Shown here: positions 17,059 through 55,875 of the stretch, one piece after another | Numbering within the stretch: the first letter of the stretch is position 1 | How the letters are laid out: every line of letters starts with the position of its first letter | Source: an uncultured Oscillospiraceae bacterium | Lineage (GTDB): Bacteria > Bacillota > Clostridia > Monoglobales > Monoglobaceae | NCBI GenBank assembly: GCA_964617455.1 | Contig: CAZTYF010000007.1 | Span: forward strand, 24,980 to 88,979 | Length of the DNA stretch: 64,000 bases | Reading direction: 5' to 3' | The notes under the pieces: model-generated | What the model was told of the DNA's origin: nothing | Seen by the model: the letters and a program-made list of their open reading frames with translations, nothing else | The model's database searches: none | Program-made: the position numbers and the translations under genes

Positions 17059-17415
17059 ATGAGCCGAGAAACACTGCCGGAGACGAGAAATTTGATGGGC
17101 TTTGTGGGTCTTTGTCAAAGAGCCGGAAAGCTGGTCTCGGGAGACGGCAAAACCGAGGAAGCCGTGAGACGAAATCGGGCATATTTGGTGTTGATGAGCA
17201 ACGACGCCTCCGAGAACACCGTTAAAAAATACGGGAATATGTGCAAAAGCCGCGGAGTTCCCATTGTCACCCTGACGGGGCGGAAAGAATTGGGCGCCGC
17301 CATAGGAAAAGAATATGCGGTCACCGCCGCAGTCACCGATAGGGGATTTGCAAAGCGCATAACAGAGTTAGCAGAAAGGGCTGATGTAAATAATGGAAAA
17401 AATACGAGCTTATGA
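17059..17415 (+). CDS. ylxQ: L7Ae/YlxQ-family ribosomal-protein-like RNA-binding protein
   Basis: [37 protein letters not shown] is typical of YlxQ. The start is uncertain (ATG 17059 or ATG 17095). Confidence 0.8.
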
Positions 17416-19660
17416 GTTATCCAAGATTTTCGGATACCCCAGCAAGGATATAGTGAAAATTCTTCACGATTACGGTGTGTCCACCAAAAATCATATGAGC
17501 GTCCTGAACGAATATGAGCTCGATGTGATTTTTGAGTATCTCACCCAAAAGAACAGTGCAAAAAACTTCTCGATAATCGAAAAGAAGCCCAAAAAGGAGC
17601 CCCATCTTCGCAAAAAACAGGACAAAGGAACGGTTCAGGAGGTTGAGCGGGACTTTTCCGAAGAGAGCGAAATCGACATGGGCAAAAAAACCCGAACGGT
17701 TGACACTCGGGTGAATAATGTTGACCTTGACAGAATAGATGACGAAAAGATTGAGGAGCTCATCCCCGAAAATGTCAAGCAGGGGGACAAGAAGCAGAAA
17801 ATCAATCAAAAGAAGAAACAGCAGCAGCGTCAGCAGCACAGCACAAAGCAGAGGCGCAAGCCCGAAAATACCTTCAAAAAGGTCGAGAAGAAAAAGAAAA
17901 AACAGGAGCCGATACATGTGCTCATTCCCGGAGAAATCACCGTGGGCGAACTGGCAAGCAGAATGAAAAAATCCCCTGCCGAGATTGTCAAAAGGCTTAT
18001 GATTTTGGGAATTATGGCAACGGTGAACGAGGTTATCGACTTTGATACCGCATCCCTGATAGTTGAGGAAATGGGAGGCACCTATGAAAAAGAGATAATC
18101 CTCTCGGAAGAGGAAAAGCTTTTCGACGATTTTGAAGACACCCCGGAGCAGCTCAAACCTCGGTCTCCCGTTGTGGTTGTTATGGGTCATGTTGACCACG
18201 GAAAGACCTCTCTCCTTGACGCCATCAGACATACAAATGTGACCGAAGGGGAATACGGAGGAATCACTCAGCACATAGGTGCGTACCGAGTTCGGGTGGG
18301 GGACAAGAAGATAACCTTCCTTGACACCCCGGGCCATGAGGCCTTCACCGCCATGCGGGCCCGCGGCGCCTTGGTAACCGATATTGCGATTTTGGTGGTT
18401 GCGGCAGACGACGGAATTATGCCTCAGACGGTGGAAGCCATAAACCACGCCAAGGCCGCCAACGTCTCCATAATCGTGGCCATAAACAAAATCGACAAAG
18501 AAGGAGCCAATCCCGAACGGGTTAAGCAGGAGCTCATGGAGCACAATCTTGTGCCCGAGGAGTGGGGCGGGGATACCATATGCGTTGAAATATCCGCCAA
18601 GCAACATCAAAACATCAAGCAACTCCTTGAGATGGTTCTCTTGGTTGCGGAAATGAAGGAGCTTAAAGCCAATCCGGACAGAAAAGCCAAGGGTACCGTT
18701 ATCGAATCCCAATTGGACAAGGGCAGAGGCCCGGTGGCAACGGTGCTGGTTCAAAACGGAACCCTTCGGGTGGGAGACTTGGTTGTGGCCGGAACGGCAA
18801 TGGGCAGAGTCCGCGCCATGAACAACGACAAGGGCAAATCGGTCAAAAAAGCAGGACCCTCCATACCCGTTGAGATTTTGGGGCTTTCGGAAGTTCCGGA
18901 GGGCGGCGATGAATTCTATGTGGTAAACGACGAAAGATTGGCCCGCTCCGTTGTGGAAAACAGAAAATTCAAGGAAAGACAGGAGCGTCAAAAGACCCCC
19001 GGCACCATTTCTCTCGACAATCTGTTTGAACAGATTGAGGCGGGCAAGACCAAGGAGCTCAACATAATCGTCAAAGCGGATGTCCAAGGCAGCGTTGAGG
19101 CGGTTAAGCAGTCTTTGGAAAGAATTTCCAACGATGAAGTCAAGGTCTCGGTTATTCACGGTGCGGTAGGTGCCATAACCGAATCCGACGTTATGCTTGC
19201 CAGCGCATCCAATGCCATCATCGTGGGCTTCAATGTTCGTCCCACGGCGGGAGCGGGAGCGGCGGCGGAAGATGCCGATGTGGACCTGCGCATGTACCGA
19301 GTAATCTATGACGCAATAGAAGATATAGAAAAGGCCATGAAAGGCCTGCTGGAACCCACCTTCCGAGAGGAAATCACCGGACATGCGGAAATCAGAACCA
19401 CCTTCAAGGTATCCGGTGTGGGCACTATCGGCGGTGCCTATGTTACCGACGGAAAAATCCGCAGGGACAGCCTTGTGCGAGTTGTCAGAGACGGCATAGT
19501 TATCCATGAAGGCGAGCTTGCTTCTCTCAGAAGATTCAAAGACGATGTTCGGGAAGTGAATGCAGGCTATGAATGCGGCCTCAGTATCAGCAATTACAAC
19601 GATATCAAAGACGGCGACACCATTGAGGCATACATAATGGCCCAAGTGGAACCGGAATAA
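17393..19660 (+). CDS. infB: translation initiation factor IF-2
   Basis: Lys/Gln-rich N-terminal region followed by the GTPase motifs [20 protein letters not shown] and NKID, then the IF-2 C-terminal domains. Confidence 0.98.
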
Positions 19661-25059: not shown

Positions 25060-26466
25060 TCATATATAGAGGATTTCCATGGTGACACCCAACATATCTC
25101 CCGGGACCTCTCCGACTCTCCAGCCAAGCTCCGTGGTCTCGATGTAGTAATAATTCGCTCCGCCATAGGTCAGGTTTCCTCTTCCGGAAGTCTTGAGGCC
25201 CACCGCCATATGGTCATCGCTCACCAAAAGCACCGTCTCATATCCCAAAAGCTTCAGGAGCTTTCCGAGCAGGGCGGCTTTATCTTCGCAGTCACCGGTA
25301 TGGTCGAACAGTGTTTCGATGGGGTATTTGGGGTATTCGGAAACCTTCTTTTCGTCAATATCGTTAACATATGGTATGGACTGGACAAAAGCGGACACAA
25401 AGGCGGCCAAGTCATAGTCGGAAGTGTATCCGTAGCTCTCGCCCAAGCTTTTCAGAGAATCGGCAAGGGCAGTGAGTCCGGTCACATCCGCATCGTCGGT
25501 GGCGTATGCCGCATAGTCATATACCCGAGGCTTTCTGTTGAAGTAGTTATAGTCATAATGGGAAATTTGAATATCCATGGAATATTCAAAGTCGCTGCCC
25601 GGGCATTTCCAGGTATAGTGCAAAAATTTCACCGGTATATTGGGATTGAGGGAAAACCGAACTCTAAGGTCGGTATTTATGATTCTTGAAACCATTGCCG
25701 CAACCTCGCTCCGTGCTATGGGAGAATAGGGATAGAATGTGCCGTATTCATCGTTGCCCGTCACAACCCCCGACTCAAAGAGAGCCAAAATTTCCCTATA
25801 ATAGGGTCCGTCGGCGCTCACATCGGGTATGGGACCGATGTCGTTTATTTTGTTATAACAGTCGGGAAGGGCTCTATACAACAAAAACGCCGATTCCTCC
25901 CGGGTGACGGTTTCGAAATATCTTCCTCCGAAGGTATTTTCCGAAATTATTCCCTGGCCGACTGCATAGGCCAGGTAGGGCAAAAACCAACCCGATTCCT
26001 CATCTCCCGCCATTTGGGCTTCCGTGCTCTCCCTGCGGAAAAACCTCTTTGTTTTGGCCCCGGATTTAACCTTTTCGTCCAATACAAATTCTCCGTCGCC
26101 GTTGACGGGATAGGAATAAATTCCCTCTGCCGCAGACAACCCCGAAATGCCGGAGACGTCACCTATGGTATTTCCGTAGTGGGCGGCATTGAGGCGGGCG
26201 GCAACGGTGATTGCCTCCGCCACCGTCAGATTTCCGTTGGGAGAAAAGACGCCCCGGGAAGTGCCCGTCATGATACCGTACTCATAAGCAAAGGCCACAT
26301 AGTTCCCGTACCAGTCTTCGGAGTTGACATCGGAGTACACACTGTTGTCATAGATATTTGTTTGACCGAATCCTCCCAAGATTTCGGCGTAGACCCCGCC
26401 CCATGTTGCGGCAAGGAGTGCCGCCGCCAAAAGGGCAGAGATGATTTTGATTGTTTTGTTTTTCAT
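25060..26466 (-). CDS. secreted SLH-domain surface protein with C-terminal transglutaminase-like (Cys-His-acid) module
   Basis: Signal peptide MKNKTIKIISALLAAALLAATWGGVYA. SLH repeats (YSDVNSEDWYGNYVAFAYEYGIMTGTSRGVFSPNGNLTVAEA; a second around YREILALFESGVVTGN). C-terminal GDCEDKAALLGKLLKLLGYETVLLVSDDHMAVG...YYIETT. Confidence 0.8.
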   Translation of the reverse strand: MKNKTIKIISALLAAALLAATWGGVYAEILGGFGQTNIYDNSVYSDVNSEDWYGNYVAFAYEYGIMTGTSRGVFSPNGNLTVAEAITVAARLNAAHYGNTIGDVSGISGLSAAEGIYSYPVNGDGEFVLDEKVKSGAKTKRFFRRESTEAQMAGDEESGWFLPYLAYAVGQGIISENTFGGRYFETVTREESAFLLYRALPDCYNKINDIGPIPDVSADGPYYREILALFESGVVTGNDEYGTFYPYSPIARSEVAAMVSRIINTDLRVRFSLNPNIPVKFLHYTWKCPGSDFEYSMDIQISHYDYNYFNRKPRVYDYAAYATDDADVTGLTALADSLKSLGESYGYTSDYDLAAFVSAFVQSIPYVNDIDEKKVSEYPKYPIETLFDHTGDCEDKAALLGKLLKLLGYETVLLVSDDHMAVGLKTSGRGNLTYGGANYYYIETTELGWRVGEVPGDMLGVTMEILYI

Positions 26467-26497: not shown

Positions 26498-27856
26498 TCA
26501 TTCTTGCTTATTGCTCTTTTCGTTTTCGCCGTCCTCGTCGTCTTCAATCGTAACAATGGCCTCTTCTATTCTGTGCTCCTCAATGCGGGTAACTTTGATT
26601 TTCATTTTTCCGAAGGAAAGCTCCGGTGTTTCGCCGTCGGCGGGGATTTTGCCCAATACGCCCAAAATCAGGCCCGCAAAGGTATTATAGTCGTCATCGT
26701 CCGGGATTTTTATTCCCAATGCTTCTTCCACATCTTCAATGTCGGCGCCGCAGTCAATGAGCCAGGAATTTTTTTCGCTGGGGATTTTATATATCTCAAG
26801 TTCCTTTTCGGGCTCATCATATTCGCTGTACAGCTCGCCGACTATTTCCTCAATCAAATCCTCCTGAGTGACTATGCCGCAAAATCCTCCGTATTCGTCA
26901 AGGACAATTGCAAAATGAGCGTTTTTGTCCTGCATCCTTTGAAACATTTCGTCCGCCTTGATGGAATCGGGCACGAAATAGGGCTCTCTCAGTATGGTTT
27001 TCAAATCGGTGTTTTTATCATGGAGCATCACCCGATAGAAGTCTCGGCTGTTCAGGATGCCCACAACATCGTCAATTCCTTCCCCGCACACGGGATAGCG
27101 GGTGTGATTTGTCTCGTTTATGATTTTCTCCCACTCTTCCGCTCCGTCCTCAAGCCAGAGAATCACAGCATCGGTTCGATGAGTCATAATTTCCTCAACG
27201 GGTTTGTCGTCCATTTCGAAGATATTGTGAATCATCTCTTTTTCGTCATCGTCGATAGCTCCGCTCTCCGAGCCGATGTCAACCATCATACGGATTTCCT
27301 CTTCGGTGACATCGTCGTTTTTGTCTCCCAAGTTTATTCCGAAAATTTTGAGAATCATTTTCGCTATAAAGCCCGGCAGAGAAACGAGAGGCATACCTGC
27401 GTATGTTATTATTTTCAGCAACGGCAGAAGGCTTTTCGCCATAGCCTCCGGATTCCGCTCTGCAATACCCTCCGGGATAAACACACCCAAAACCATATAG
27501 AGAAATGCGCCGAGCACCACGGGTATGATACAGGCAAGGATTCGGGGCATGGAAATCAAAGCGGTGATATAGGGTTCAAATCCAAGCGAGGCGGCACCGA
27601 TTGCCAGCACCGATATAAGGGAGAAAAATCCCGCCGATGCTGCCATAAAACGGGAATGTCCGTTCAGAAATTCAACCAGAGCCTTGGCTTTATTGTCGCC
27701 CTCTTCCGCCATAGTCCTGAGCTTGGTGTCTCCGGCGGCCACGGCAGAGTGTTCGGCCATGGTAATAAAAAAACTCAATCCGTAAAAAACCAAAAGTGTC
27801 ACCCATAAATGCCATAAAGGGGGCAGTGCATCCAAAAATATCATCCTTTCCGGCAC
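26498..27856 (-). CDS. hemolysin-family/CNNM (DUF21)-CBS-CorC_HlyC transporter-associated protein
   Basis: N-terminal DUF21 membrane domain, a CBS pair (MTHRTDAV...; VLDEYGGFCGIVTQEDLIEEIVGE), and a CorC/HlyC C-domain. The exact start is uncertain. Confidence 0.88.
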   Translation of the reverse strand: MPERMIFLDALPPLWHLWVTLLVFYGLSFFITMAEHSAVAAGDTKLRTMAEEGDNKAKALVEFLNGHSRFMAASAGFFSLISVLAIGAASLGFEPYITALISMPRILACIIPVVLGAFLYMVLGVFIPEGIAERNPEAMAKSLLPLLKIITYAGMPLVSLPGFIAKMILKIFGINLGDKNDDVTEEEIRMMVDIGSESGAIDDDEKEMIHNIFEMDDKPVEEIMTHRTDAVILWLEDGAEEWEKIINETNHTRYPVCGEGIDDVVGILNSRDFYRVMLHDKNTDLKTILREPYFVPDSIKADEMFQRMQDKNAHFAIVLDEYGGFCGIVTQEDLIEEIVGELYSEYDEPEKELEIYKIPSEKNSWLIDCGADIEDVEEALGIKIPDDDDYNTFAGLILGVLGKIPADGETPELSFGKMKIKVTRIEEHRIEEAIVTIEDDEDGENEKSNKQE

Positions 27857-27972
27857 AGCCGCTTAAAATAATAAGGTCATTATAGCACGTCTCCTTTTTG
27901 TTGTCAATAGATATAAGATTCCCGACCGGAGACGGAGCTTTGGGAAATTTTAACAAATTTCATCCGTTGTTC

Positions 27973-28002
27973 TTGACAGAAAACCGCCCTTTGTGATAGA
28001 AT
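27973..28002 (+). promoter_or_regulatory. promoter of the riboswitch leader
   Basis: TTGACA (27973-27978), 18-nt spacer, TAGAAT (27997-28002), with an extended -10 TG at 27994-27995. Confidence 0.6.
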
Positions 28003-28109
28003 AAAAATGCGGGGGTTTACATGCCCCGCTGGGAGGTGTGTTTTCATAGTTCACACTTCCTGCGTTTAAGACTTTTTATGTTTAAAACATTAAACGTCAA
28101 TGAACGATT

Positions 28110-28202
28110 GTAGCAAACCCGATGAAAATCGGGGACGCAAAGCTATGGGGTCTAAAACAAGTTCCGCGGACGCGGGGAATTTGCAATGACAGCCCGGCTG
28201 CC
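28110..28202 (+). promoter_or_regulatory. c-di-GMP-I (GEMM-I) riboswitch aptamer, copy 1
   Basis: GCAAACCCGAT-GAAA-ATCGGGGACGCAAAGCTATGGGGTCTAAA...ATGACAGCCCGGCTGCC matches the GEMM-I hallmark (GCAAACC, GNRA-capped helix, GACGCAAAGC, GGGUC, ACAGCCGGGC). Confidence 0.85.
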
Positions 28203-28286
28203 TGCTCCGGTATATCGGCAGCGCGACGGCGGAGCGGTTTTCCGCAAGGCCTCCCAAATGGTATACCGAACTACAATTTAATAATT

Positions 28287-28381
28287 GAGGCAAACCCGGT
28301 GAAAGCCGGTGACGCAAAGCTATGGGGTCTAAAACGGTTTCCGGCGGACGCGCGGGATTCGGTCATGACAGCCCGGCCGCC
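28287..28381 (+). promoter_or_regulatory. c-di-GMP-I (GEMM-I) riboswitch aptamer, copy 2
   Basis: GGCAAACCCGGTGAAAGCCGGTGACGCAAAGCTATGGGGTCTAAA...ATGACAGCCCGGCCGCC. Stem differences relative to copy 1 are compensatory. Confidence 0.85.
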
Positions 28382-28470
28382 TGCTCCGGTGTGCAAGCAG
28401 TGAGTGCGGGATGCACTTAAGTCACACCACAGGAAAGTTTGATCGTTTTAATCCATAAAAACCTGAACAA

Positions 28471-28550
28471 ACGGCAAACCCGACGAAAATCGGGGACGCA
28501 AAGCTATGGGGTCTAAAGCAAGTCACCTTGCTATGACAGCCCGGCCACCT
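28471..28550 (+). promoter_or_regulatory. c-di-GMP-I (GEMM-I) riboswitch aptamer, copy 3
   Basis: GGCAAACCCGAC-GAAA-ATCGGGGACGCAAAGCTATGGGGTCTAAAGCAAGTCACCTTGCTATGACAGCCCGGCCACC. The distal helix is shorter than in copies 1 and 2. Confidence 0.85.
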
Positions 28551-28631
28551 GCTTGGTTTCAAGCCGAGTCACCAATCGGTGATGAGTGGCATTGCCTTTG
28601 GCAATGGTTTGTGAAAGATTGGAGGATTATC

Positions 28632-29372
28632 ATGACAAAGACTTTGAAAAGCATTTTCGTTCTGTTGATTGCAGTGGTTGCTGTTTGCAGCATATCTGCT
28701 TATGCCGCAGAAGAAAACACGGCTCTCGACGCAACTTTTGCCGAAGCCGTTGCAAGCTATGAAACGACAGTAGACGTATCCCGATTCAATATGACCGCCG
28801 ACGATGTTATGAATGCGTTCCTTTCATATTTGGACAGGACACCGAGGAACTTTTATGTTTCCAAAACCGTTAATTGCTCTTATTCAACAGCAACAAACAA
28901 GGCCGCCCTGTTGACAATATCCTATACGGACAGTGAGGATGTTATCAACGGAAAGCTTGCGGCGTTCGATGCGGAAGTTGCAAACATCACGGCCCTTGTT
29001 AATGACTCGATGACAGCAGAAGAAAAGGCAAAAATCATCCACAATTACTTTATCGAGAACTGCTCCTACGATTTCACCGATACGGCGAAAACCGCCTATG
29101 ATGCAATCGTAAATAAAGTCGGTGTATGCCAGGCGTATTCTTCCGCATATCAGTATGTTATGAATGCAGTCGGCGTGCCCTGCACAACGGTGGCAAGTGT
29201 TGCTATGAATCACAGTTGGAATCTCATTGAAGTAAACGGTGTGCTGTACCATGTTGATGTAACCTGGGACGACCCGGTCATAGACGGAGTCAATACAAAT
29301 ACAATTCCCTTCTATGATAACTTCATGAAGAGCGACGCAGAGATTTCCGTTGACCACTATGCATGGAGCTAA
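28632..29372 (+). CDS. secreted transglutaminase-like (Cys-His-Asp) domain protein
   Basis: GGAGG (28621-28625) lies upstream of ATG 28632. Signal peptide MTKTLKSIFVLLIAVVAVCSISAYA. Core VGVCQAYSSAYQYVMNAVGVPC...NHSWNLIEV...HVDVTWDD fits the transglutaminase-core C/H/D pattern. Confidence 0.8.
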   Translation: MTKTLKSIFVLLIAVVAVCSISAYAAEENTALDATFAEAVASYETTVDVSRFNMTADDVMNAFLSYLDRTPRNFYVSKTVNCSYSTATNKAALLTISYTDSEDVINGKLAAFDAEVANITALVNDSMTAEEKAKIIHNYFIENCSYDFTDTAKTAYDAIVNKVGVCQAYSSAYQYVMNAVGVPCTTVASVAMNHSWNLIEVNGVLYHVDVTWDDPVIDGVNTNTIPFYDNFMKSDAEISVDHYAWS

Positions 29373-29386
29373 TCCGAAAAGTAACA

Positions 29387-29414
29387 GACCCCGGCTCACC
29401 GCCGGGGTCCTTTT
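29387..29414 (+). terminator. terminator after the transglutaminase-like gene (overlaps the rsmG 3' end)
   Basis: 8-bp stem GACCCCGG/CCGGGGTC followed by CTTTTAT. Confidence 0.6.
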
Positions 29415-30142
29415 ATGTCTTCCGAATATGCCCTCTGTCTGTCTTTGGAGGTTCGTTTTATCCTTTTTTCGCTTCGGGGAAATTGTTTCGGAGTGGGTTT
29501 TGTTTTTTCCGTTATGACAATGGTCCGAATTATATCGCTTTCGGGAAGGGGAGCGGTGATTATATCGGTTATTTTGCCGCCCAAAGTGCCGATAATGGGC
29601 TTTGCCCTTTCGATTTCCTCCTCCGAGTCCCGCCCTTTCAGGGCAATGAACCTGCCTCCCACTTTGAGATAGGGGAGACAGTATTCGGACAGGACCGTCA
29701 TATTTGCCACTGCCCGAGACAGAACACAGTCAAAGGCCTCTCGGCAGCCGTTTTTTTTCGGTTCCTCCGCTCTTCCGTGAATGCAATTTGCATCAATTCC
29801 CAATTCTTTTGACAGGGTTTCCAAAAACCGAACTTTTTTGCCTACGGAATCTATCAGGGTCAAATCGATATCCGGAATCATCAGTTTTATGGGTATGCCG
29901 GGGAATCCCGCTCCGGTGCCTATGTCGGCAACCGAACCCTCTATTTCCGTATATTTGAGAGGGAGCAGGGAGTCCAAAAAATGCTTAACCGTTATTTCAT
30001 CCTCATCGGTGATGGCGGTCAGGTTGAATTTTTTGTTCCACTCCAAAAGCAGCTCCGAATATTTCTCAAATTGATTCACCGTGTCCCCGTCGGCAGAAAG
30101 GCCCATGGCGGCGAGGCCTTTTTCAAAAAGCTCTTTATTCAT
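29396..30142 (-). CDS. rsmG: 16S rRNA (guanine527-N7)-methyltransferase
   Basis: LLEWNKKFNLTAI...HFLDSL...DIGTGAGFPGIPIK...SRAVA are RsmG/GidB motifs. The start is placed at MNKELFEKG. Confidence 0.9.
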   Translation of the reverse strand: MNKELFEKGLAAMGLSADGDTVNQFEKYSELLLEWNKKFNLTAITDEDEITVKHFLDSLLPLKYTEIEGSVADIGTGAGFPGIPIKLMIPDIDLTLIDSVGKKVRFLETLSKELGIDANCIHGRAEEPKKNGCREAFDCVLSRAVANMTVLSEYCLPYLKVGGRFIALKGRDSEEEIERAKPIIGTLGGKITDIITAPLPESDIIRTIVITEKTKPTPKQFPRSEKRIKRTSKDRQRAYSEDIKGPRR

Positions 30143-31544
30143 TGGCAGTTTTCCTGTTTTCTCTGTCTTTTTCTGTGAGGGCATATCCCAAATCACAGAT
30201 GTTTCCTGCGCCCATGGTGATTATCAAATCCTCCGCCTCGGCATTTTCCGAAAGATATCGGCCTATTGCCCCCAAATCGTTCATATATATTGCTCCCTTT
30301 ATCTTCCTTGCCAAATCGCAGGAGTGAACAGTGCCGTCGTATTTCTCCCGTGCGGGATATATATCGGCTATCATAACTTTGTCCGCCTCTCCGAGAGCCG
30401 AGGCAAACTCATCCAAAAATGCCGCCGTCCTTGTGTAGGTGTGGGGCTGGAATACCACCCAGATGTTTTTGTACCCCATTTTTTGGGCGGCTCTCAGGGT
30501 GGCCCTTATCTCTGTGGGATGGTGGGCATAGTCATCAATCACATCGCTGCCGCAAGATGCCTTGCCGAGTTTTTCAAAGCGTCTATGGGTTCCGGTAAAT
30601 TCCTCAAGGCCCTTTTTGATGTATTTCGCCTCGATTCGGAGAAAGTCGCAGGCGGCGGCAACGCCCACCGCATTGCATATGTTGTGCTCCCCCACCACGT
30701 TTAAGTCAACATGGCACAGTTTCTTTCCCCTGCCTAAAATATCAAAACTCGGATAGGCCCCGGACCGATAGGATATATTTTGGGCGGTATAGTCTGCATT
30801 CGGGTTTTTTATGCCATATGTCACAAGAGGTTTTTTGACATTTTGCACAATATTTTGGGTAGTGTTTTCGTCAATACAAACAATATTACATCCATTATCA
30901 TCAGTAAGTCTTGTAAATTTTGTAAAAGATGTTATAATGTGATTAAGGTCTTTAAAATAATCAAGGTGATCCTCTTCGATGTTCGTGACTATCGATACAT
31001 AAGGATTAAAATGAAGAAAGCTTTCCACATATTCACATGCCTCAAAAGGCAGATATTCGGAGCTGCCGATACGGTAGTTTCCGCCTATTTGGCGCAATTC
31101 TCCGCCTATCAGAACCGTGGGATCCTTTCCGGCCTCAAGGAGCACCAGCGACAGCATTGACGAGGTTGTGGTTTTCCCGTGCGTACCCGCCACAGCTATC
31201 GGATACTTATAGAGATCAAGGAGTGCGCCGAGCATTTCTGCCCGCTCCACCACCGGAACGGAAAGGCGGCGGGCGGCAAGGAGTTCGGGATTGTCGTCGC
31301 TTATGGCGGCGGTATAACACACCGCATCCGGGTCCTTGATGTTGGCGGCGCTCTGACCCACAAAAATCTCAGCACCATTACGTTTCAGCCTGTCCGTGAG
31401 TTCGGAGTCTTTTGTATCACTGCCGGACACCTTGTATCCAAAGCCGAGCAGCATTTCCGCAATGCCGCTCATGCTGATTCCGCCGATGCCGATCATGTGT
31501 ATGTGTGCGCCCTTCGGTATTTCGGCAAACGAAAACTTATTCAT
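30135..31544 (-). CDS. murC: UDP-N-acetylmuramate--L-alanine ligase
   Basis: HMIGIGGISMSGIAEML, AVAGTHGKTTTSSM and DDYAHHPTEI are MurC signatures. Confidence 0.95.
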   Translation of the reverse strand: MNKFSFAEIPKGAHIHMIGIGGISMSGIAEMLLGFGYKVSGSDTKDSELTDRLKRNGAEIFVGQSAANIKDPDAVCYTAAISDDNPELLAARRLSVPVVERAEMLGALLDLYKYPIAVAGTHGKTTTSSMLSLVLLEAGKDPTVLIGGELRQIGGNYRIGSSEYLPFEACEYVESFLHFNPYVSIVTNIEEDHLDYFKDLNHIITSFTKFTRLTDDNGCNIVCIDENTTQNIVQNVKKPLVTYGIKNPNADYTAQNISYRSGAYPSFDILGRGKKLCHVDLNVVGEHNICNAVGVAAACDFLRIEAKYIKKGLEEFTGTHRRFEKLGKASCGSDVIDDYAHHPTEIRATLRAAQKMGYKNIWVVFQPHTYTRTAAFLDEFASALGEADKVMIADIYPAREKYDGTVHSCDLARKIKGAIYMNDLGAIGRYLSENAEAEDLIITMGAGNICDLGYALTEKDRENRKTANE

Positions 31545-32090: not shown

Positions 32091-34616
32091 TTACTTATAT
32101 CCTATTCTCACGGGGCCAATCAGTCCGGAGGGAGACAGCGCAATATAGCGGGAATATTTGTCCCGAAATTTGTAGGCAGGATTGTTTGTTACGATTATTT
32201 CAAGGCGGTTTATACCCGTCTCCAAATCAACATCATACCTATAAGGCGGGCAAATTTCGATGCCTGCTTTTTTGCCGTTTACGATAAGCTCCGCAATTTC
32301 TCCCACCTCTCCCAAATCAATCAGGGCGCTGCCCCCCGGTGACAAAAATTCCGTCCGATATCGAATTTTGCCGCAGAATCTGTCAAGACTCTCTTCTCCG
32401 GTGATGTTTATGAGAGGGCTCGATTTTTTGCAGGGCACAAAATCTTTCCCGTTTTCGGATATATCAATGTCAAATTTGAGTTCCTCTTTTATAAGATCGG
32501 GCAAATCGGGCCGATATTTCGGCAAATTCTTCGGCTTGCCGCCAAAGATGACCGCAAGAGGACGATAGGGCTCAACCACCAGACGGAGTTCTCCGTCCCC
32601 GTCGGCCTCAAACAAAGTGTTCTCCGTTCCGTCATATATGACACAGGCGCCTTTTTCGGAGGGAAATTTTACAACTCCGTCAAAAGTTTGGCTTACGCTC
32701 TCATTGTTTAAAAAATAGATGTCAATCCCCTCTCGCTCATACTTGAGCACCCGTAAATCCAGAAAAGGTTCCTTGAGGGCAATTTCCCCGTATTTTGCCC
32801 CATAGGCGCAAATATCCTCAAGAGGGACAACACCGATATGGAAGGGGTTTTGGTAATTTTTGGGAATGCCGTCAATAAACACCACATCGCACCCCGATTT
32901 TTTCAATTTTTCCAATATTCCAAGACAGGATTTTGGCAAAATTTCCCCATAGGGAACAATAATCAGCGGGTATTCCATGCCGTTTATTGTGAACTTGCCA
33001 TCTTTGGCTTGCCCCTCATTTAGGGCATCAAAGGGGATAATGTCACAATCGATTTGTGCTTCCAAAAGTTTCTTCAGCGGCTTCTGCTCAAGCATATATT
33101 TTCCGCCGCACCACTCCGCCTCGGCATGGTATACCACGGCGGCGGAGGGATTTGCCATGCCTCCGCTCAATATGTGGCACATCCGATTTATGTAACCGCT
33201 AAGATACTTCAGGTATTCATATTGGGGATTTTTGCCGCTTCCGTAGAGATGGGGAGGGCAATCGGGATCGTCTTCTTTCGGAGAAAAAGCGTGGGGCACA
33301 AAACGGTTAATTCCCGCCGCCAAAAAGTGGTCAATTTGCCACTTCATCAAAGGCAAGCCCTCCGCCCAGCCATAACCGCCAAAACATTCACAGAGGGCCC
33401 GGCCCTTTTTTCCCGATTGAATATGTGCCAGGGATGCGCCCAATTTTCCCAAGGCAAAATCATAGAAGTCCGGGTCGTTGTTTCGTGTGGACGCATAGAC
33501 TGCGTGACACATATTCCCAAAGCCCGGCAGGAGTTGGTGATACACGGCATCGATTCCCGACATATCCTGGCCCCTCAGAGCACGAAAATAGTGGCCCGCT
33601 CCGGGTCCCAAACGGGAGCTGACATTCATATCCTCAAGAATGTGCCCGATATACAGAACTCCCCGCTCCCGACACCAATCTCCCAGCATTTGGCAAAAGT
33701 TTTTTGCGTACATTTCGGATATGGCATTCATGTACTCATATCTCACCGAGGCCGTGATATCACCGCAATCGTACCAAAGGGCGGGAGCGGCACATACCCC
33801 GGGCAGCCCGGATGCCCTTTTGATTACATCCCATAGGGAATCGGTCCAGGGCAGGGCTGCACTCACCGTTCCCACGGAGGTTTCATAGCCTTTCGGCAGG
33901 GTTCTGAAACCCGGTTCATCGCTGAAAAATCCGGCTATGGTTTTGCCGAACTCCTCTCTGTATCGCCTGTAGTGAGGTTCATAGACCTCGTCAATCATCA
34001 TTTTGCAGGACTCGGGATTTAAAGGGTCCGCCATATAGGCGGAACGGCCTTCCGAGCCTCCTTGGGTATTGATAAAAAAGAAAACCCGCCACACTCCCTC
34101 CGGCACATCAAACCGAAGCAAGCCGTTATGAATTTTATCGGAGAGGTCTATTGCCTTCCCCGTCAAATCTTCTCCCGCTCCGCTCCGCTTCACCGCCGCG
34201 GCGCCCACCAACCGCTCGTCAAACTCGGGCCTGAGTTCGGGAAGCAAAATCGACATCTCGTTTTTGGGACCCGTCACATCCATATTCTTTTCAATCAAAA
34301 AACGCTTGCGCAAGTCGGGACGTCTTTTTTCAAACACACCGTTGGCATATCCGCTGGGGAAATGCTTGTCGTCAAAAATCCAGACCTTCATGTGGAGCTT
34401 TTTGGCTTCGGCTATTATATTGTCAAGATTTTCCCACCACTTCTCACCGCAAAAATCCTCAAAGGGGCGGGACTCCACACAAAAGGCCCCGATTCCCGCC
34501 TCGTGAATTTTGTTTATCTCCCGACATATTGTTTCCGCATCCTCCCCATGCTGCCAAAACAGGGGCATTATATAGTTGTCATACTTCTCGTTTACGGCCT
34601 CAATTACCCGTTTCAT
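32091..34616 (-). CDS. putative glycoside hydrolase (TIM-barrel-like N-part, C-terminal galactose-binding/jelly-roll-like domain)
   Basis: No signal peptide. N-terminal PLFWQHGED...AFCVESRPFEDF...MKVWIFDDKHFPSGYANG. C-terminal LGEVGEIAELIVNGKKAGIEICPPYRYDVDL..GINRLEIIVTNN resembles the sugar-binding domain of GH2/GH106-type enzymes. The family is not assigned. Confidence 0.6.
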   Translation of the reverse strand: MKRVIEAVNEKYDNYIMPLFWQHGEDAETICREINKIHEAGIGAFCVESRPFEDFCGEKWWENLDNIIAEAKKLHMKVWIFDDKHFPSGYANGVFEKRRPDLRKRFLIEKNMDVTGPKNEMSILLPELRPEFDERLVGAAAVKRSGAGEDLTGKAIDLSDKIHNGLLRFDVPEGVWRVFFFINTQGGSEGRSAYMADPLNPESCKMMIDEVYEPHYRRYREEFGKTIAGFFSDEPGFRTLPKGYETSVGTVSAALPWTDSLWDVIKRASGLPGVCAAPALWYDCGDITASVRYEYMNAISEMYAKNFCQMLGDWCRERGVLYIGHILEDMNVSSRLGPGAGHYFRALRGQDMSGIDAVYHQLLPGFGNMCHAVYASTRNNDPDFYDFALGKLGASLAHIQSGKKGRALCECFGGYGWAEGLPLMKWQIDHFLAAGINRFVPHAFSPKEDDPDCPPHLYGSGKNPQYEYLKYLSGYINRMCHILSGGMANPSAAVVYHAEAEWCGGKYMLEQKPLKKLLEAQIDCDIIPFDALNEGQAKDGKFTINGMEYPLIIVPYGEILPKSCLGILEKLKKSGCDVVFIDGIPKNYQNPFHIGVVPLEDICAYGAKYGEIALKEPFLDLRVLKYEREGIDIYFLNNESVSQTFDGVVKFPSEKGACVIYDGTENTLFEADGDGELRLVVEPYRPLAVIFGGKPKNLPKYRPDLPDLIKEELKFDIDISENGKDFVPCKKSSPLINITGEESLDRFCGKIRYRTEFLSPGGSALIDLGEVGEIAELIVNGKKAGIEICPPYRYDVDLETGINRLEIIVTNNPAYKFRDKYSRYIALSPSGLIGPVRIGYK

Positions 34617-34837
34617 ATGTTCCCGCACCTCCGATTTTCTCTGAAAATATAATCCCATTGTATCACAATCCCGGCATTTTGTGAAGATATAACCCGTCCG
34701 ATAAACCCTATTTTGGGAAAAACCCGTTTCCGAGCCGATAATTTCCGCAGATACCGCTTTTTAAATCTTCCATGTACAACATCCGCCTCTCCGTGTGCAA
34801 GGCAGCGGTTCCCCGGCCGAGAGACGGAGTGAAAGTT

Positions 34838-35085: not shown

Positions 35086-35163
35086 GGTCCGGTAGTTCAG
35101 TAGGTTTAGAATGCCAGCCTGTCACGCTGGAGGTCGTGGGTTCGAACCCCATCCGGATCGCCA
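35086..35163 (+). tRNA. tRNA-Asp (anticodon GUC), CCA encoded
   Basis: GGTCCGG acceptor pairs with CCGGATC. Anticodon loop CCTGTCACG, T-arm GGTTCGAACCC, 3' GCCA. Confidence 0.95.
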
Positions 35164-35165
35164 TT

Positions 35166-35241
35166 GCTGCCTTAGCTCAGTAGGCAGAGCACTTCCTTGG
35201 TAAGGAAGAGGTCGGCAGTTCGAATCTGCTAGGCAGCTCCA
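35166..35241 (+). tRNA. tRNA-Thr (anticodon GGU), CCA encoded
   Basis: GCTGCCT acceptor pairs with AGGCAGC. Anticodon loop CTTGGTAAG, T-arm AGTTCGAATCT, 3' TCCA. Confidence 0.95.
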
Positions 35242-35266
35242 AGCGCCGCACGGTTGTGCGGCGCTT
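35242..35266 (+). terminator. strong hairpin after the tRNA pair (weak U-tract)
   Basis: 10-bp stem AGCGCCGCAC-GGTT-GTGCGGCGCT followed by only TT. Confidence 0.5.
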
Positions 35267-35294
35267 AATAGTTACTTGTTATGGAGGAAGAGCC

Positions 35295-37286
35295 ATGCAA
35301 CTGTTTCACAACTCTCACGACACAGCCTATCGCTTCCCTTTCGGAGCGGCACCTACCGACAGTTTTATCCGACTGGGAATTAAAATCAACTCGGACACAA
35401 AGCCCGACAGGGTTCGGGTACGGTTATGGGTGGATGACAATGAAGTCTTTTTTGAAATGAATCCCTCAAAACCTCAAACCGAGGAGCCCTTATATTTTCC
35501 GGATTTGACCATCTCTTCTGCGGATGACAACAGCATTATGTATACGGCAAATATTCCCACTCCGGAGACGGGGCAGCTCATGTGGTACTACTTTGTGATT
35601 GATGTGGGCGATGAGACCATATACTACACCAACAATCGGGAAAAATTGGGCGGTGTGGGACAGGTTGACACGGAGCCTCGGGACAACAGTTACCAGATAA
35701 CCGTATATGACAAAAACTACAAAACACCCGATTGGTTCAAGGGCAAAATTATGTACCAAATTTTCACCGACCGTTTTTTCGGTGACCACAGCGACACGGG
35801 AGGCACCATACCCAAAAAACGAAATGAGTACGTTATTCACAAGGATTGGTACGAACAGATTTCTTTCAATGCCCATCCCTATGAAATGGGGCCCGCCTGC
35901 AATGACTTCTACGGAGGAAACCTGAAAGGCATAATCGACAAGCTTGACTATTTGAAAAGCTTGGGCGTGGGGGTTATATATTTAAATCCCATATTTGACG
36001 CCTATTCGAATCATAAATACGACACTGCGGATTATATGAATGTTGACCCTATGTTCGGCACCAACGAGACCTTTTCCTATCTGTGCGAGGAGGCCGAAAA
36101 GCGGGGCATACGGATTATATTGGACGGTGTGTTCAGCCACACGGGTTCCGACAGCGTATATTTCAACAAGTACGGCAACTACGGTAGTGATACGGGAGCC
36201 TACAGAAACCCCAACAGCCCCTACAGGGAGTGGTACAGCTTCACAAACTTTCCCAACTATGAAAGCTGGTGGGGCTGCAGCAATTTGCCCAATGTGAAAG
36301 AAATGACTCCCTCCTATCTTGACTATATCATCAGAGGCGACGATTCGGTTGCCAAAACCTGGCTGAAACGGGGAGCGTCCGGATGGCGCCTTGATGTGGC
36401 CGATGAGCTGCCCGACGAATTCATAAAAATCTTTCGCCGGGAAACAAAAAAACAAAACAAGGACGCCGTAATCATCGGCGAGGTTTGGGAGGATGCATCA
36501 AATAAAATCTCCTATGACAAAAAACGGGAATATCTGTTTGGAGACGAATTGGATTCTGTGATGAACTATCCCTTCAAGGACAATATGCTCGCCTTTGTTA
36601 TGGGCAACATCGATGCGGAAGTCCTGAATGCAAGGATGATGTCCATATTCGAAAACTATCCCAAAGAAACCGTCCACGCCCTGATGAACATTGTGGGCAC
36701 CCATGACACCATGAGGGTGAAAACCCTCTTGGGAGGTCTGTCCCATGACTGCGGAACCCGCAAACTCAGCTCCTCCGATGAGGAACTCGCAACCCGCCGT
36801 TTGAAAATTCTGTCATTTATCCAAATGACCTATGTGGGAGTTCCCTGCATATACTACGGCGACGAAGTGGGCATGCAGGGGGGAGGGGACCCCTTTAACC
36901 GAGGCACCTATCCCTGGAGAGCCGTTGACCCGGAACTTCGGGAATGGTACTCCGATTTGGGAACATTGAGAAACAGTTTGGACTGTTTGAAAACGGGCAG
37001 ATACAAGGCTCTGTACGCCTCGGGAGATGTTTATATCTATGCAAGATATATCTCGGACGGCAAGGACTCCTTCGGGAAAAAAGCCAAAGAGAGTGTTGCG
37101 ATATGCGGCGTGAACAGAAGTTTCGGCCGCAAGCGGGTTGACTTGGACCTGTCCGTCATCGGCGACTTTACCTACTTTGCCGGAGGAATCAAGGACCCCG
37201 ACATAGTCCCTTGCCGGAACAACACTTTGGAGGTGAATTTGGAACCCCTGAGCTGCGAAATTTATATAAACTCCGACGAGGTATAA
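35295..37286 (+). CDS. GH13 alpha-amylase family enzyme (neopullulanase/cyclomaltodextrinase-like, cytoplasmic)
   Basis: All four GH13 regions are present: DGVFSHT, GWRLDVADEL, IIGEVWE and NIVGTHD. There is an N-terminal extra domain and no signal peptide. GGAGGA lies upstream of ATG 35295. Confidence 0.9.
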   Translation: MQLFHNSHDTAYRFPFGAAPTDSFIRLGIKINSDTKPDRVRVRLWVDDNEVFFEMNPSKPQTEEPLYFPDLTISSADDNSIMYTANIPTPETGQLMWYYFVIDVGDETIYYTNNREKLGGVGQVDTEPRDNSYQITVYDKNYKTPDWFKGKIMYQIFTDRFFGDHSDTGGTIPKKRNEYVIHKDWYEQISFNAHPYEMGPACNDFYGGNLKGIIDKLDYLKSLGVGVIYLNPIFDAYSNHKYDTADYMNVDPMFGTNETFSYLCEEAEKRGIRIILDGVFSHTGSDSVYFNKYGNYGSDTGAYRNPNSPYREWYSFTNFPNYESWWGCSNLPNVKEMTPSYLDYIIRGDDSVAKTWLKRGASGWRLDVADELPDEFIKIFRRETKKQNKDAVIIGEVWEDASNKISYDKKREYLFGDELDSVMNYPFKDNMLAFVMGNIDAEVLNARMMSIFENYPKETVHALMNIVGTHDTMRVKTLLGGLSHDCGTRKLSSSDEELATRRLKILSFIQMTYVGVPCIYYGDEVGMQGGGDPFNRGTYPWRAVDPELREWYSDLGTLRNSLDCLKTGRYKALYASGDVYIYARYISDGKDSFGKKAKESVAICGVNRSFGRKRVDLDLSVIGDFTYFAGGIKDPDIVPCRNNTLEVNLEPLSCEIYINSDEV

Positions 37287-48061: not shown

Positions 48062-48138
48062 TGGCGCGCCCGGAGGGATTCGAACCCCCGACCTAACGGT
48101 TCGTAGCCGTCCACTCTATCCAGCTGGGCTACGGGCGC
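48062..48138 (-). tRNA. tRNA-Arg (anticodon ACG), CCA encoded
   Basis: The reverse complement reads GCGCCCGTAGCCCAGCTGGATAGAG...GGCTACGAACC...GGTTCGAATCCCTCCGGGCGCGCCA. Confidence 0.95.
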
Positions 48139-54892: not shown

Positions 54893-54979
54893 GCCGGTGT
54901 GGTGGAATTGGCAGACGCGCTGGACTCAAAATCCTGTGGTAGAAATACCGTATCGGTTCGACCCCGATCACCGGCACCA
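54893..54979 (+). tRNA. tRNA-Leu (anticodon CAA), long variable arm, CCA encoded
   Basis: GCCGGTGTGGTGGAATTGGCAGACGCGCTGGACTCAAAATCC...variable arm...GGTTCGACCCCGATCACCGGCACCA. Confidence 0.95.
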
Positions 54980-55570: not shown

Positions 55571-55645
55571 TGGTGATCCGTAGGGGACTCGAACCCCTGT
55601 TACCGCCGTGAAAGGGCGATGTCTTAGCCTCTTGACCAACGGACC
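55571..55645 (-). tRNA. tRNA-Glu (anticodon UUC), CCA encoded
   Basis: The reverse complement reads GGTCCGTTGGTCAAGAGGCTAAGACATCGCCCTTTCACGGCG...GGTTCGAGTCCCCTACGGATCACCA. Confidence 0.93.
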
Positions 55646-55798: not shown

Positions 55799-55875
55799 TG
55801 GTCGGGGTTACAGGATTTGAACCTGCGGCCCCTTGGTCCCAAACCAAGTGCGCTACCAAACTGCGCCAAACCCCG
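55799..55875 (-). tRNA. tRNA-Pro (anticodon UGG), CCA encoded
   Basis: The reverse complement reads CGGGGTTTGGCGCAGTTTGGTAGCGCACTTGGTTTGGGACCAAGGGG.CGCAGGTTCAAATCCTGTAACCCCGACCA. Confidence 0.93.

Follow-up and report, generated by a model that had tools for sequence, protein, structure and literature searches.

A single leader with three c-di-GMP-I aptamers and a putative shared translational platform upstream of a transglutaminase-like gene in Monoglobus-type Clostridia

The leader and its three aptamers

The window analyzed here is a 64,000-nt stretch of contig CAZTYF010000007.1 from assembly GCA_964617455.1, an uncultured Oscillospiraceae bacterium placed by GTDB in the Monoglobaceae. At 28632-29372 on the + strand it contains a gene for a 246-aa secreted transglutaminase-like protein (PF01841, E = 1.2e-10), preceded by a ~620-nt leader that carries three aptamers of the cyclic di-GMP (c-di-GMP) class I riboswitch in tandem. 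The protein has an N-terminal hydrophobic signal-like segment, and the residues of a Cys-His-Asp set (Cys166, His194, Asp209) are invariant across homologs; its nearest solved relatives, 9crn and 3isr, are annotated merely as transglutaminase-like. Because the downstream rsmG gene is convergent (29396-30196), the regulated gene is monocistronic.

A covariance-model scan of the whole window with Rfam returned three matches to RF01051 (c-di-GMP-I, GEMM-I; gathering score 35 bits), all on the + strand and each spanning model positions 1-87: aptamer 1 at 28102-28205 (61.6 bits), aptamer 2 at 28279-28384 (53.6 bits), and aptamer 3 at 28463-28552 (67.6 bits). Three matches above the gathering score had been expected in an initial annotation of this DNA made from the sequence alone. 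No riboswitch family other than c-di-GMP-I was matched in the window. A 23-mer, GACGCAAAGCTATGGGGTCTAAA, which that annotation had reported as identical among the copies, indeed occurs exactly at 28134, 28311, and 28495, with spacings of 177 and 184 nt, and was found 0 times in 100 shuffled sequences. Alignments to the Rfam model recover a GNRA-capped P2, a P3 with a CUAA...AUGAC receptor-like internal loop, and an ACGCAAA junction in 3/3 copies. Equivalents of the Vc2 residues A47 and C92 are likewise present in every copy (28139 and 28201 in aptamer 1, 28316 and 28380 in aptamer 2, 28500 and 28548 in aptamer 3). P2 and the distal part of P3 covary from copy to copy and from species to species, and the compensatory differences in P2, both among copies and among species, uphold the earlier argument against a recent duplication. 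The three matches are independent GEMM-I aptamers, backed by this covariation, and on the strength of their sequence they would be expected to function as class I c-di-GMP binders. A 93-aa open reading frame within the leader (28122-28403) was set aside as a mechanical reading frame spanning aptamers 1-2.

The leader begins at a sigma-A-type promoter on the + strand (27973-28002; TTGACA, an 18-nt spacer, and TG-n-TAGAAT) that agrees with 11/12 consensus positions and would place the transcription start near 28009; its -35 and extended -10 elements are conserved in all orthologous leaders. It ends at a Shine-Dalgarno (SD) sequence, GGAGG, at 28621-28625, followed by the ATG at 28632, so that both boundaries lie where they had initially been annotated. 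Promoter and terminator patterns were scanned over 27500-28900. The only second promoter-like match on the + strand in this interval is weak (9/12) and lies inside the coding region; no internal promoter was found on the + strand between 28003 and 28631, in agreement with the earlier view that the copies are not separated by promoters of their own. The scan also found no intrinsic terminator, against 1.9 expected from shuffles. With one promoter and no terminator-like sites, the three aptamers share one leader.

Conservation across relatives and the ligand-contact base

The closest orthologs of the regulated gene (79-83% amino-acid identity) occur in seven rabbit-gut metagenome-assembled genomes (MAGs) labeled "uncultured Monoglobus sp.", and a triple RF01051 arrangement in the same order lies upstream of the ortholog in 7/7 Monoglobus MAG species recovered. 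Independent contigs from Logan, ENA, and NCBI carry the same triple, which is thus conserved in >10 independent assemblies. The Monoglobus leaders are ~90% identical at the DNA level, yet the proteins that follow them share only the 79-83% identity given above. Conservation of the triple with compensatory changes, despite this ~90% identity, indicates that it is old and maintained by selection and that neither duplication nor misassembly has created it artificially. A scan of metagenome contigs contained no close orthologs, the best match having 39% identity.

Among more distant relatives, the number of aptamers varies. A 50%-identical homolog, L007, has three aptamers with spacers of 53 and 24 nt; homologs at 41-45% identity (L015, L169-L171) have two; and several at 30-37% identity carry a single copy. 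In L172, whose 5' end is truncated, only the second aptamer is visible, and most of the 160 related loci have no aptamer. Several contigs with the orthologous gene (L001, L004, L006, L168, L172) end within the tandem-aptamer leader, and many homologs lie on short contigs (1-2 kb). Short-read assemblies probably fragment at the repeated aptamers, such that tandem riboswitches are likely undercounted in metagenome surveys.

The leader and its gene travel as a cassette through differing neighborhoods: pheS/HicAB or a tRNA and a large leucine-rich-repeat protein in MAGs, and CNNM/rsmG in the window (loci L002, L005/L012, and L009-L014 were compared with the window). In the window, the downstream gene order is rsmG, murC, spoVG, and the upstream CNNM/CorC-type gene (26498-27856, -) is transcribed divergently, presumably from a - strand promoter at 27879-27907 with a perfect consensus (TTGACA-17-TATAAT with TG, 12/12), ~65 nt from the leader promoter. 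Further neighbors are an SLH-domain protein (25060-26466, -), a GH106 alpha-L-rhamnosidase-like protein (32091-34658, -), and an alpha-amylase-family protein (35256-37286, +), which fit the genome of a plant-polysaccharide-degrading Clostridia member such as Monoglobus; the window also carries tRNA genes at 35086-35238, 48065-48138, 54893-54976, 55574-55645, and 55802-55875.

The aptamers differ at a base that contacts the ligand. The two guanines of the ligand are recognized in Vc2 by pairing with G20 and C92, respectively, with A47 intercalating; in the Gs1761 cyclic GMP-AMP (cGAMP) riboswitch, A14, A41, and C75 correspond to G20, A47, and C92 (PMC6140456). We defined the G20-equivalent, whose identity decides between c-di-GMP and cGAMP recognition, as position 11 of the Rfam model, which immediately precedes GC-AAA; the intercalating A follows 27 nt downstream, a distance that holds in both Vc2 (G20/A47) and Gs1761 (A14/A41). 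This nucleotide is A in aptamer 1 (28112) and G in aptamers 2 (28289) and 3 (28473). The initial annotation had assigned GGCAAACC to each copy and had taken a G before CAAACC in all three as a sign of c-di-GMP selectivity; the G is present in copies 2 and 3, but copy 1 reads uAGCAAACC and not GGCAAACC, and neither statement survives for it. Copy 2 reads GGUGACGC, not GGGGACGC. The A of aptamer 1 is kept in 10/10 Monoglobus leaders; position 11 of aptamer 2 is G in 6/10 and A in 4/10 of them, and the three aptamers of L007 have G, A, and A, respectively.

Aptamers with A at this position bind c-di-GMP more weakly and also bind cGAMP (PMC6140456). Vc2 G20A has affinities of 53 nM for c-di-GMP and 120 nM for cGAMP, as compared with a wild type that binds c-di-GMP in the pM range, and bispecificity is described for an A-variant from Clostridium beijerinckii (PMC6140456); an A-variant from D. 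acetoxidans has improved c-AMP-GMP binding (PMC9481103). In the window, the A that a GEMM-Ib (3'3'-cGAMP) riboswitch combines with a demonstrated preference for cGAMP and a host cGAMP synthase is present in copy 1 only. The leader could on these grounds be a mixed-affinity or mixed-ligand device, in which the A-bearing aptamer 1 is weaker for c-di-GMP or also accepts 3'3'-cGAMP, giving two thresholds or two signals; such a device would fit either direction of control. The retention of A 28112 throughout the Monoglobus leaders, the A found in part of the aptamer 2 sequences and in L007, and the ligands taken by the known A-variants all favor this idea. However, A at the contact position is by itself insufficient for cGAMP selectivity (PMC6140456). 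The G/A state moreover switches among aptamers across lineages, which suggests weak constraint, and neither a cGAMP synthase nor a diguanylate cyclase is visible within the 64-kb window; its sole GGDEF string, at ~18902, is a chance motif within translation initiation factor IF-2 (17393-19660, +) and not a cyclase. We regard the mixed device as rather improbable, and c-di-GMP as still the likeliest ligand despite the A in copy 1.

Structured spacers and a predicted Shine-Dalgarno clamp

Between and around the aptamers, the leader is predicted to be extensively structured, and 22/202 base pairs of the alifold consensus, including pairs in aptamer and spacer helices, show compensatory change. 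Two 5'-terminal hairpins (28009-28061, +; GCGGGGG...CCCCGC and GGGAGGUGUG...CACACUUCC) are predicted by alifold, with compensatory changes at alignment columns 7/20, 9/18, and 32/53, and may serve as a 5' stabilizer of the transcript. Spacer 1 (28206-28288, +) contains a long-range helix (28208-28214/28262-28268) around inner hairpins, with compensatory changes at columns 208/267, 212/263, 222/255, and 227/250. Spacer 2 (28380-28433, +) pairs CCUG (28380-28383) with CAGG (28430-28433) and GGUGUG (28388-28393) with CACACC (28423-28428) around an inner hairpin; column 391/439 is UA in 5 sequences and CG in 5, column 392/438 is also compensatory, and the structure is recovered by single-sequence minimum free energy (MFE) folding as well. 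Neither spacer holds a terminator.

Three further hairpins, X, Y, and T (28551-28606, +), separate aptamer 3 from the 3' strand of the helix that closes it. Hairpin X covaries within Monoglobus (GCUUG/CAAGC versus ACUUA/UAAGU, columns 564/579 and 568/575); hairpin Y is UCACC-loop-GGUGA, with a loop that is GNRA in relatives and AAUC in the window; and hairpin T is CAUUGCC/GGCAAUG. Hairpins Y and T recur with other sequences in L007, L015, L168, and L170. Two alternative pairings were rejected: that of hairpin T with GGCAA of an aptamer is not conserved in L007, and the GCCAC/GUGGC helix of the window MFE structure is contradicted by other species, which read GUGUC.

The arrangement of three complete aptamers in one 5' untranslated region (UTR) could be explained by three independent transcription-attenuating riboswitches in series, each with its own terminator and together giving a pseudo-cooperative digital response, as in the Bc3-5 system of Bacillus thuringiensis. 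A hairpin followed by U7 after the first aptamer of the related two-aptamer lineage would be in keeping with such a design. However, the terminator scan came out below the shuffled expectation, with 0 sites in 27500-28900, and the alignment, read by eye, shows no U-tract after the spacer 1 and 2 hairpins in 10/10 Monoglobus leaders. Aptamers 2 and 3 of L007 are just 24 nt apart, and the sequence after hairpin T is GUUUGUG, CGUUUAUG, or GAUUAUG, that is, without a conserved U-tract. We consider serial attenuation highly unlikely for this leader. The very steep response that the initial annotation had anticipated from stacked aptamers loses its footing on the same grounds, as it presupposes three expression platforms and 0/3 copies have a terminator of their own.

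In place of a local P1, the predicted closing helices are long-range, with the partner strand of the 5' flank located 60-70 nt further downstream, past inserted hairpin domains. In unit 1, a P1-like closure pairs UACAAUU (28272-28278) with 28106-28112 and AUUGA (28284-28288) with 28097-28101; the duplex has a dG of -7.8, reached by 24/500 shuffles, and its AUUGU/ACAAU pairing recurs in the two-aptamer lineage (L169, L170). A comparable closing helix for aptamer 2, between its 5' flank and spacer 2, was dropped (-3.1 kcal/mol, reached by 314/500 shuffles).

The closing helix of aptamer 3 extends into the translation start. Its 5' strand, the putative anti-SD strand, is the 5' flank of the aptamer (28434-28472, +), with UAAUCC at 28449-28454 and ACAAAC at 28467-28472 adjoining the G20-equivalent at 28473. 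The SD/AUG strand (28607-28634, +) comprises GUUUGU (28607-28612), AAAG, GGAGG (28621-28625), GGAUUA (28624-28629), and AUG (28632-28634). The predicted clamp joins 28434-28472 with 28607-28645: ACAAAC/GUUUGU forms past hairpins X, Y, and T, followed across small internal loops by UAAUCC/GGAUUA (28449-28454/28624-28629), which covers the 3' half of the SD, and by pairs with the AUG. The clamp is thereby a direct extension of the helix adjoining the binding pocket. It is predicted both by single-sequence MFE folding and by alifold, with a duplex dG of -19 to -22 kcal/mol in the Monoglobus leaders and -12 to -18 kcal/mol in L007, L015, and L170-L172, and z-scores against shuffles between -2 and -4 in each (-2.5 to -4.1 for the pairing at -19 to -22 kcal/mol). 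UUUUAAUCC of the anti-SD strand is conserved in L007, L015, and L169-L172, and in L007 the ACAAAC/GUUUGU helix becomes AUAAAC/GUUUAU, a compensatory change from C-G to U-A. In the computed ensemble, the probability of being unpaired is ~0 for 28624-28629 and the AUG, and rises to 0.4-0.9 once 28434-28472 is made unavailable.

A similar layout occurs in the two-aptamer leaders (L015 at 1987-2500, L169, L170, L171), where the first aptamer is followed by the hairpin and U7 and the second by X/Y/T hairpins and an SD clamp. These leaders look like a "bi-mechanism" tandem, transcriptional and then translational.

The anti-SD strand has a second potential partner. A candidate anti-anti-SD strand ("Omega 5'"; 28072-28096, +; CUUUUUAUG-U-UUAAAAC-AUUAAAC), for which an alternative local hairpin is possible, is predicted to form a competing helix with 28436-28461 (dG -16.7 to -18.4 kcal/mol, z about -3 against shuffles). 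An analogous competing pair, different in sequence but of equal complementarity, UUGG(U)AUUAAAAUUUC with GAAAUUUUAAUCCAA, is found in L169-L171 (z -2.1 to -4.4). Since the anti-SD strand is complementary both to the SD/AUG strand and to 28072-28096, the modeled leader has the makings of an anti-anti-SD/anti-SD/SD toggle, in which the competing helix encloses aptamers 1 and 2 and the clamp encloses aptamer 3. Further pairing is possible in this AU-rich leader; the conserved P3 segment GGUCUAAAAC of aptamers 1 and 2 (28147-28156, 28324-28333) is largely complementary to CGUUUUAAUCC of the anti-SD strand (28445-28454), with an alternative pairing of -15.5 kcal/mol for aptamer 2.

Direction of control and relation to known systems

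The output of the leader is most likely the initiation of translation. In the mechanism that we propose, the clamp would form as the closing helix of aptamer 3 extended over the 3' half of the SD and the AUG; the anti-SD strand could alternatively pair with 28072-28096, freeing the SD; and c-di-GMP binding would stabilize the clamp and repress translation, because folded aptamer 3 and the clamp coexist and are not mutually exclusive. Aptamers 1 and 2, inside the competing helix, would tune the balance between the two structures. We give about an even chance to this combination of a shared translational platform with repression by c-di-GMP (an OFF switch). The direction is the most tentative part of the proposal.

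The lean toward OFF draws on known switches and on relatives of the leader: the coexistence resembles that in Cd1, the paralogs have an OFF layout, and the class I riboswitches of Clostridioides difficile are uniformly OFF. In Cd1, an OFF switch, the aptamer can form together with the terminator, whereas in the ON switch pilM the two are mutually exclusive (PMC9262584), and the C. difficile class I riboswitches are all OFF, including one before the protease gene zmpI (PMC6200980). Among single-aptamer paralog leaders, L034, L058, and L017 have canonical terminators whose 5' strands pair with the aptamer core (CAGCC or ACGCAAA) in folds of truncated transcripts, which corresponds to a Cd1-type OFF layout; L173 also has a canonical terminator, but pairing with the aptamer core was not seen in its truncated fold. 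In the two-aptamer lineage, the 5' strand of the first terminator is complementary to GACGCA by eye, though this was not reproduced in folds. A CACAA/UUGUG antiterminator considered for the same lineage was uninformative, as the terminator forms in every constrained fold.

Several observations weigh against the proposed mechanism. In none of the three copies was a canonical local P1 found, in which the 5' flank would pair with the residues that immediately follow the C92-equivalent; in the paralog L034 a local P1 is present by eye from the sequence, though absent from truncated-transcript folds. Neither the clamp nor the competing helix varies among the Monoglobus leaders, which thus lend them no covariation support; what supports them is a cross-lineage comparison of AU-rich segments with modest z-scores, and in L007 and L015 the competing helix is weak. 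The thermodynamic model keeps the SD sequestered with or without a ligand proxy, so that constraint folding used as this proxy revealed no switch. The OFF model leaves unexplained the route from ligand at aptamers 1 and 2 to the SD, and the characterized natural triple, Bc3-5, is an ON switch (PMC4759541). Rho-dependent termination and RNase-mediated decay are also conceivable as alternative outputs.

The same architecture could operate in the opposite direction. In such an ON switch, the SD would be clamped without ligand, and c-di-GMP at aptamers 1 and 2 would stabilize 28072-28096/28436-28461 and free the SD and AUG; the ACAAAC/GUUUGU helix of aptamer 3 could persist in this ON state. The strands of the competing helix do not overlap 28467-28472. 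A sequestered SD is the equilibrium default, the clamp is only slightly more stable than the competing helix (-19.3 vs. -16.7 to -18.4), which directly adjoins the P1-like helix of unit 1, and the B. thuringiensis triple provides an ON precedent (PMC4759541). However, an ON switch would leave aptamer 3 without a clear role, and it would have to contend with the weakness of the competing helix in L007 and L015, with the OFF-type appearance of the paralog leaders and of the first riboswitch in the two-aptamer lineage, and with the uniformly OFF class I switches of another Clostridia member (PMC6200980). We consider the ON direction possible but doubtful, and retain repression by c-di-GMP as the working model.

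Triple c-di-GMP-I arrangements and their association with transglutaminase-like genes are already known. The initial annotation had placed triples only in the Bacillus cereus group, a restriction that the literature overturns: a systematic search reported 347 doublets and 12 triplets of c-di-GMP-I (Sherlock et al. 2022, PMC9481103), and a 2025 survey found a significant enrichment of Bacillota COG1305 transglutaminase-like genes downstream of c-di-GMP-I tandems, of which 94% were doublets and 6% triplets (PMC12452182). These COG1305 (yebA) tandems and triplets share with the window the riboswitch class, the tandem or triple layout, the PF01841/COG1305 family, and the phylum; they differ in being survey counts, for which the anatomy of the expression platform is unpublished.

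Bc3-5 of B. thuringiensis CT-43 (Zhou et al. 2016, PMC4759541) is similar in that three like, complete class I aptamers share the 5' UTR of a Firmicute gene whose product is secreted or located at the surface. However, Bc3, Bc4, and Bc5 each have their own terminator and are ON switches (PMC4759541), whereas the window has no per-aptamer terminators but covarying structured spacers and predicted sequestration of the SD and AUG. Cd1 of C. difficile (PMC9262584, PMC6200980) is likewise a class I riboswitch in Clostridia whose aptamer fold can coexist with the repressing structure, and the genes repressed by C. difficile class I switches include one for a secreted protease (PMC6200980); Cd1, however, has a single aptamer and acts by intrinsic termination, in contrast to the three aptamers and predicted translational clamp of the window. 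The tandem glycine riboswitch similarly connects several aptamers for the same ligand to one expression platform (Table 1, PMC9481103), but its inter-aptamer contacts and cooperativity have been shown experimentally, whereas we infer platform sharing in the window from missing terminators and nested long-range helices.

Potential novelty lies in how the elements are wired, with no terminator attached to any single aptamer, closing helices that reach around inserted domains, and a putative shared translational platform. A more far-reaching, and tentative, possibility is that the leader acts as an integrated sensor: the closing helix of each aptamer would be long-range and hold an inserted domain, and these helices, nested or mutually exclusive, would convert three binding events into a single SD toggle. 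Such an architecture is not known to have been described among cyclic-dinucleotide riboswitches; if it is real, the integrated sensor and the A-variant pocket could together make the control of translation genuinely cooperative, staged, or even non-monotonic, whether c-di-GMP acts alone or alongside cGAMP.

These data add a well-conserved, terminator-free triple c-di-GMP-I leader of gut Clostridia (Monoglobus-type) to a class experimentally known only from B. thuringiensis. Should the shared translational platform be real, the leader would provide a compact natural model for wiring several identical aptamers to one output, and would also show how G/A variation at a ligand-contact base sets thresholds. 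As for the regulated gene, the leader suggests that c-di-GMP controls a secreted transglutaminase-like enzyme in a gut lineage that degrades pectin.

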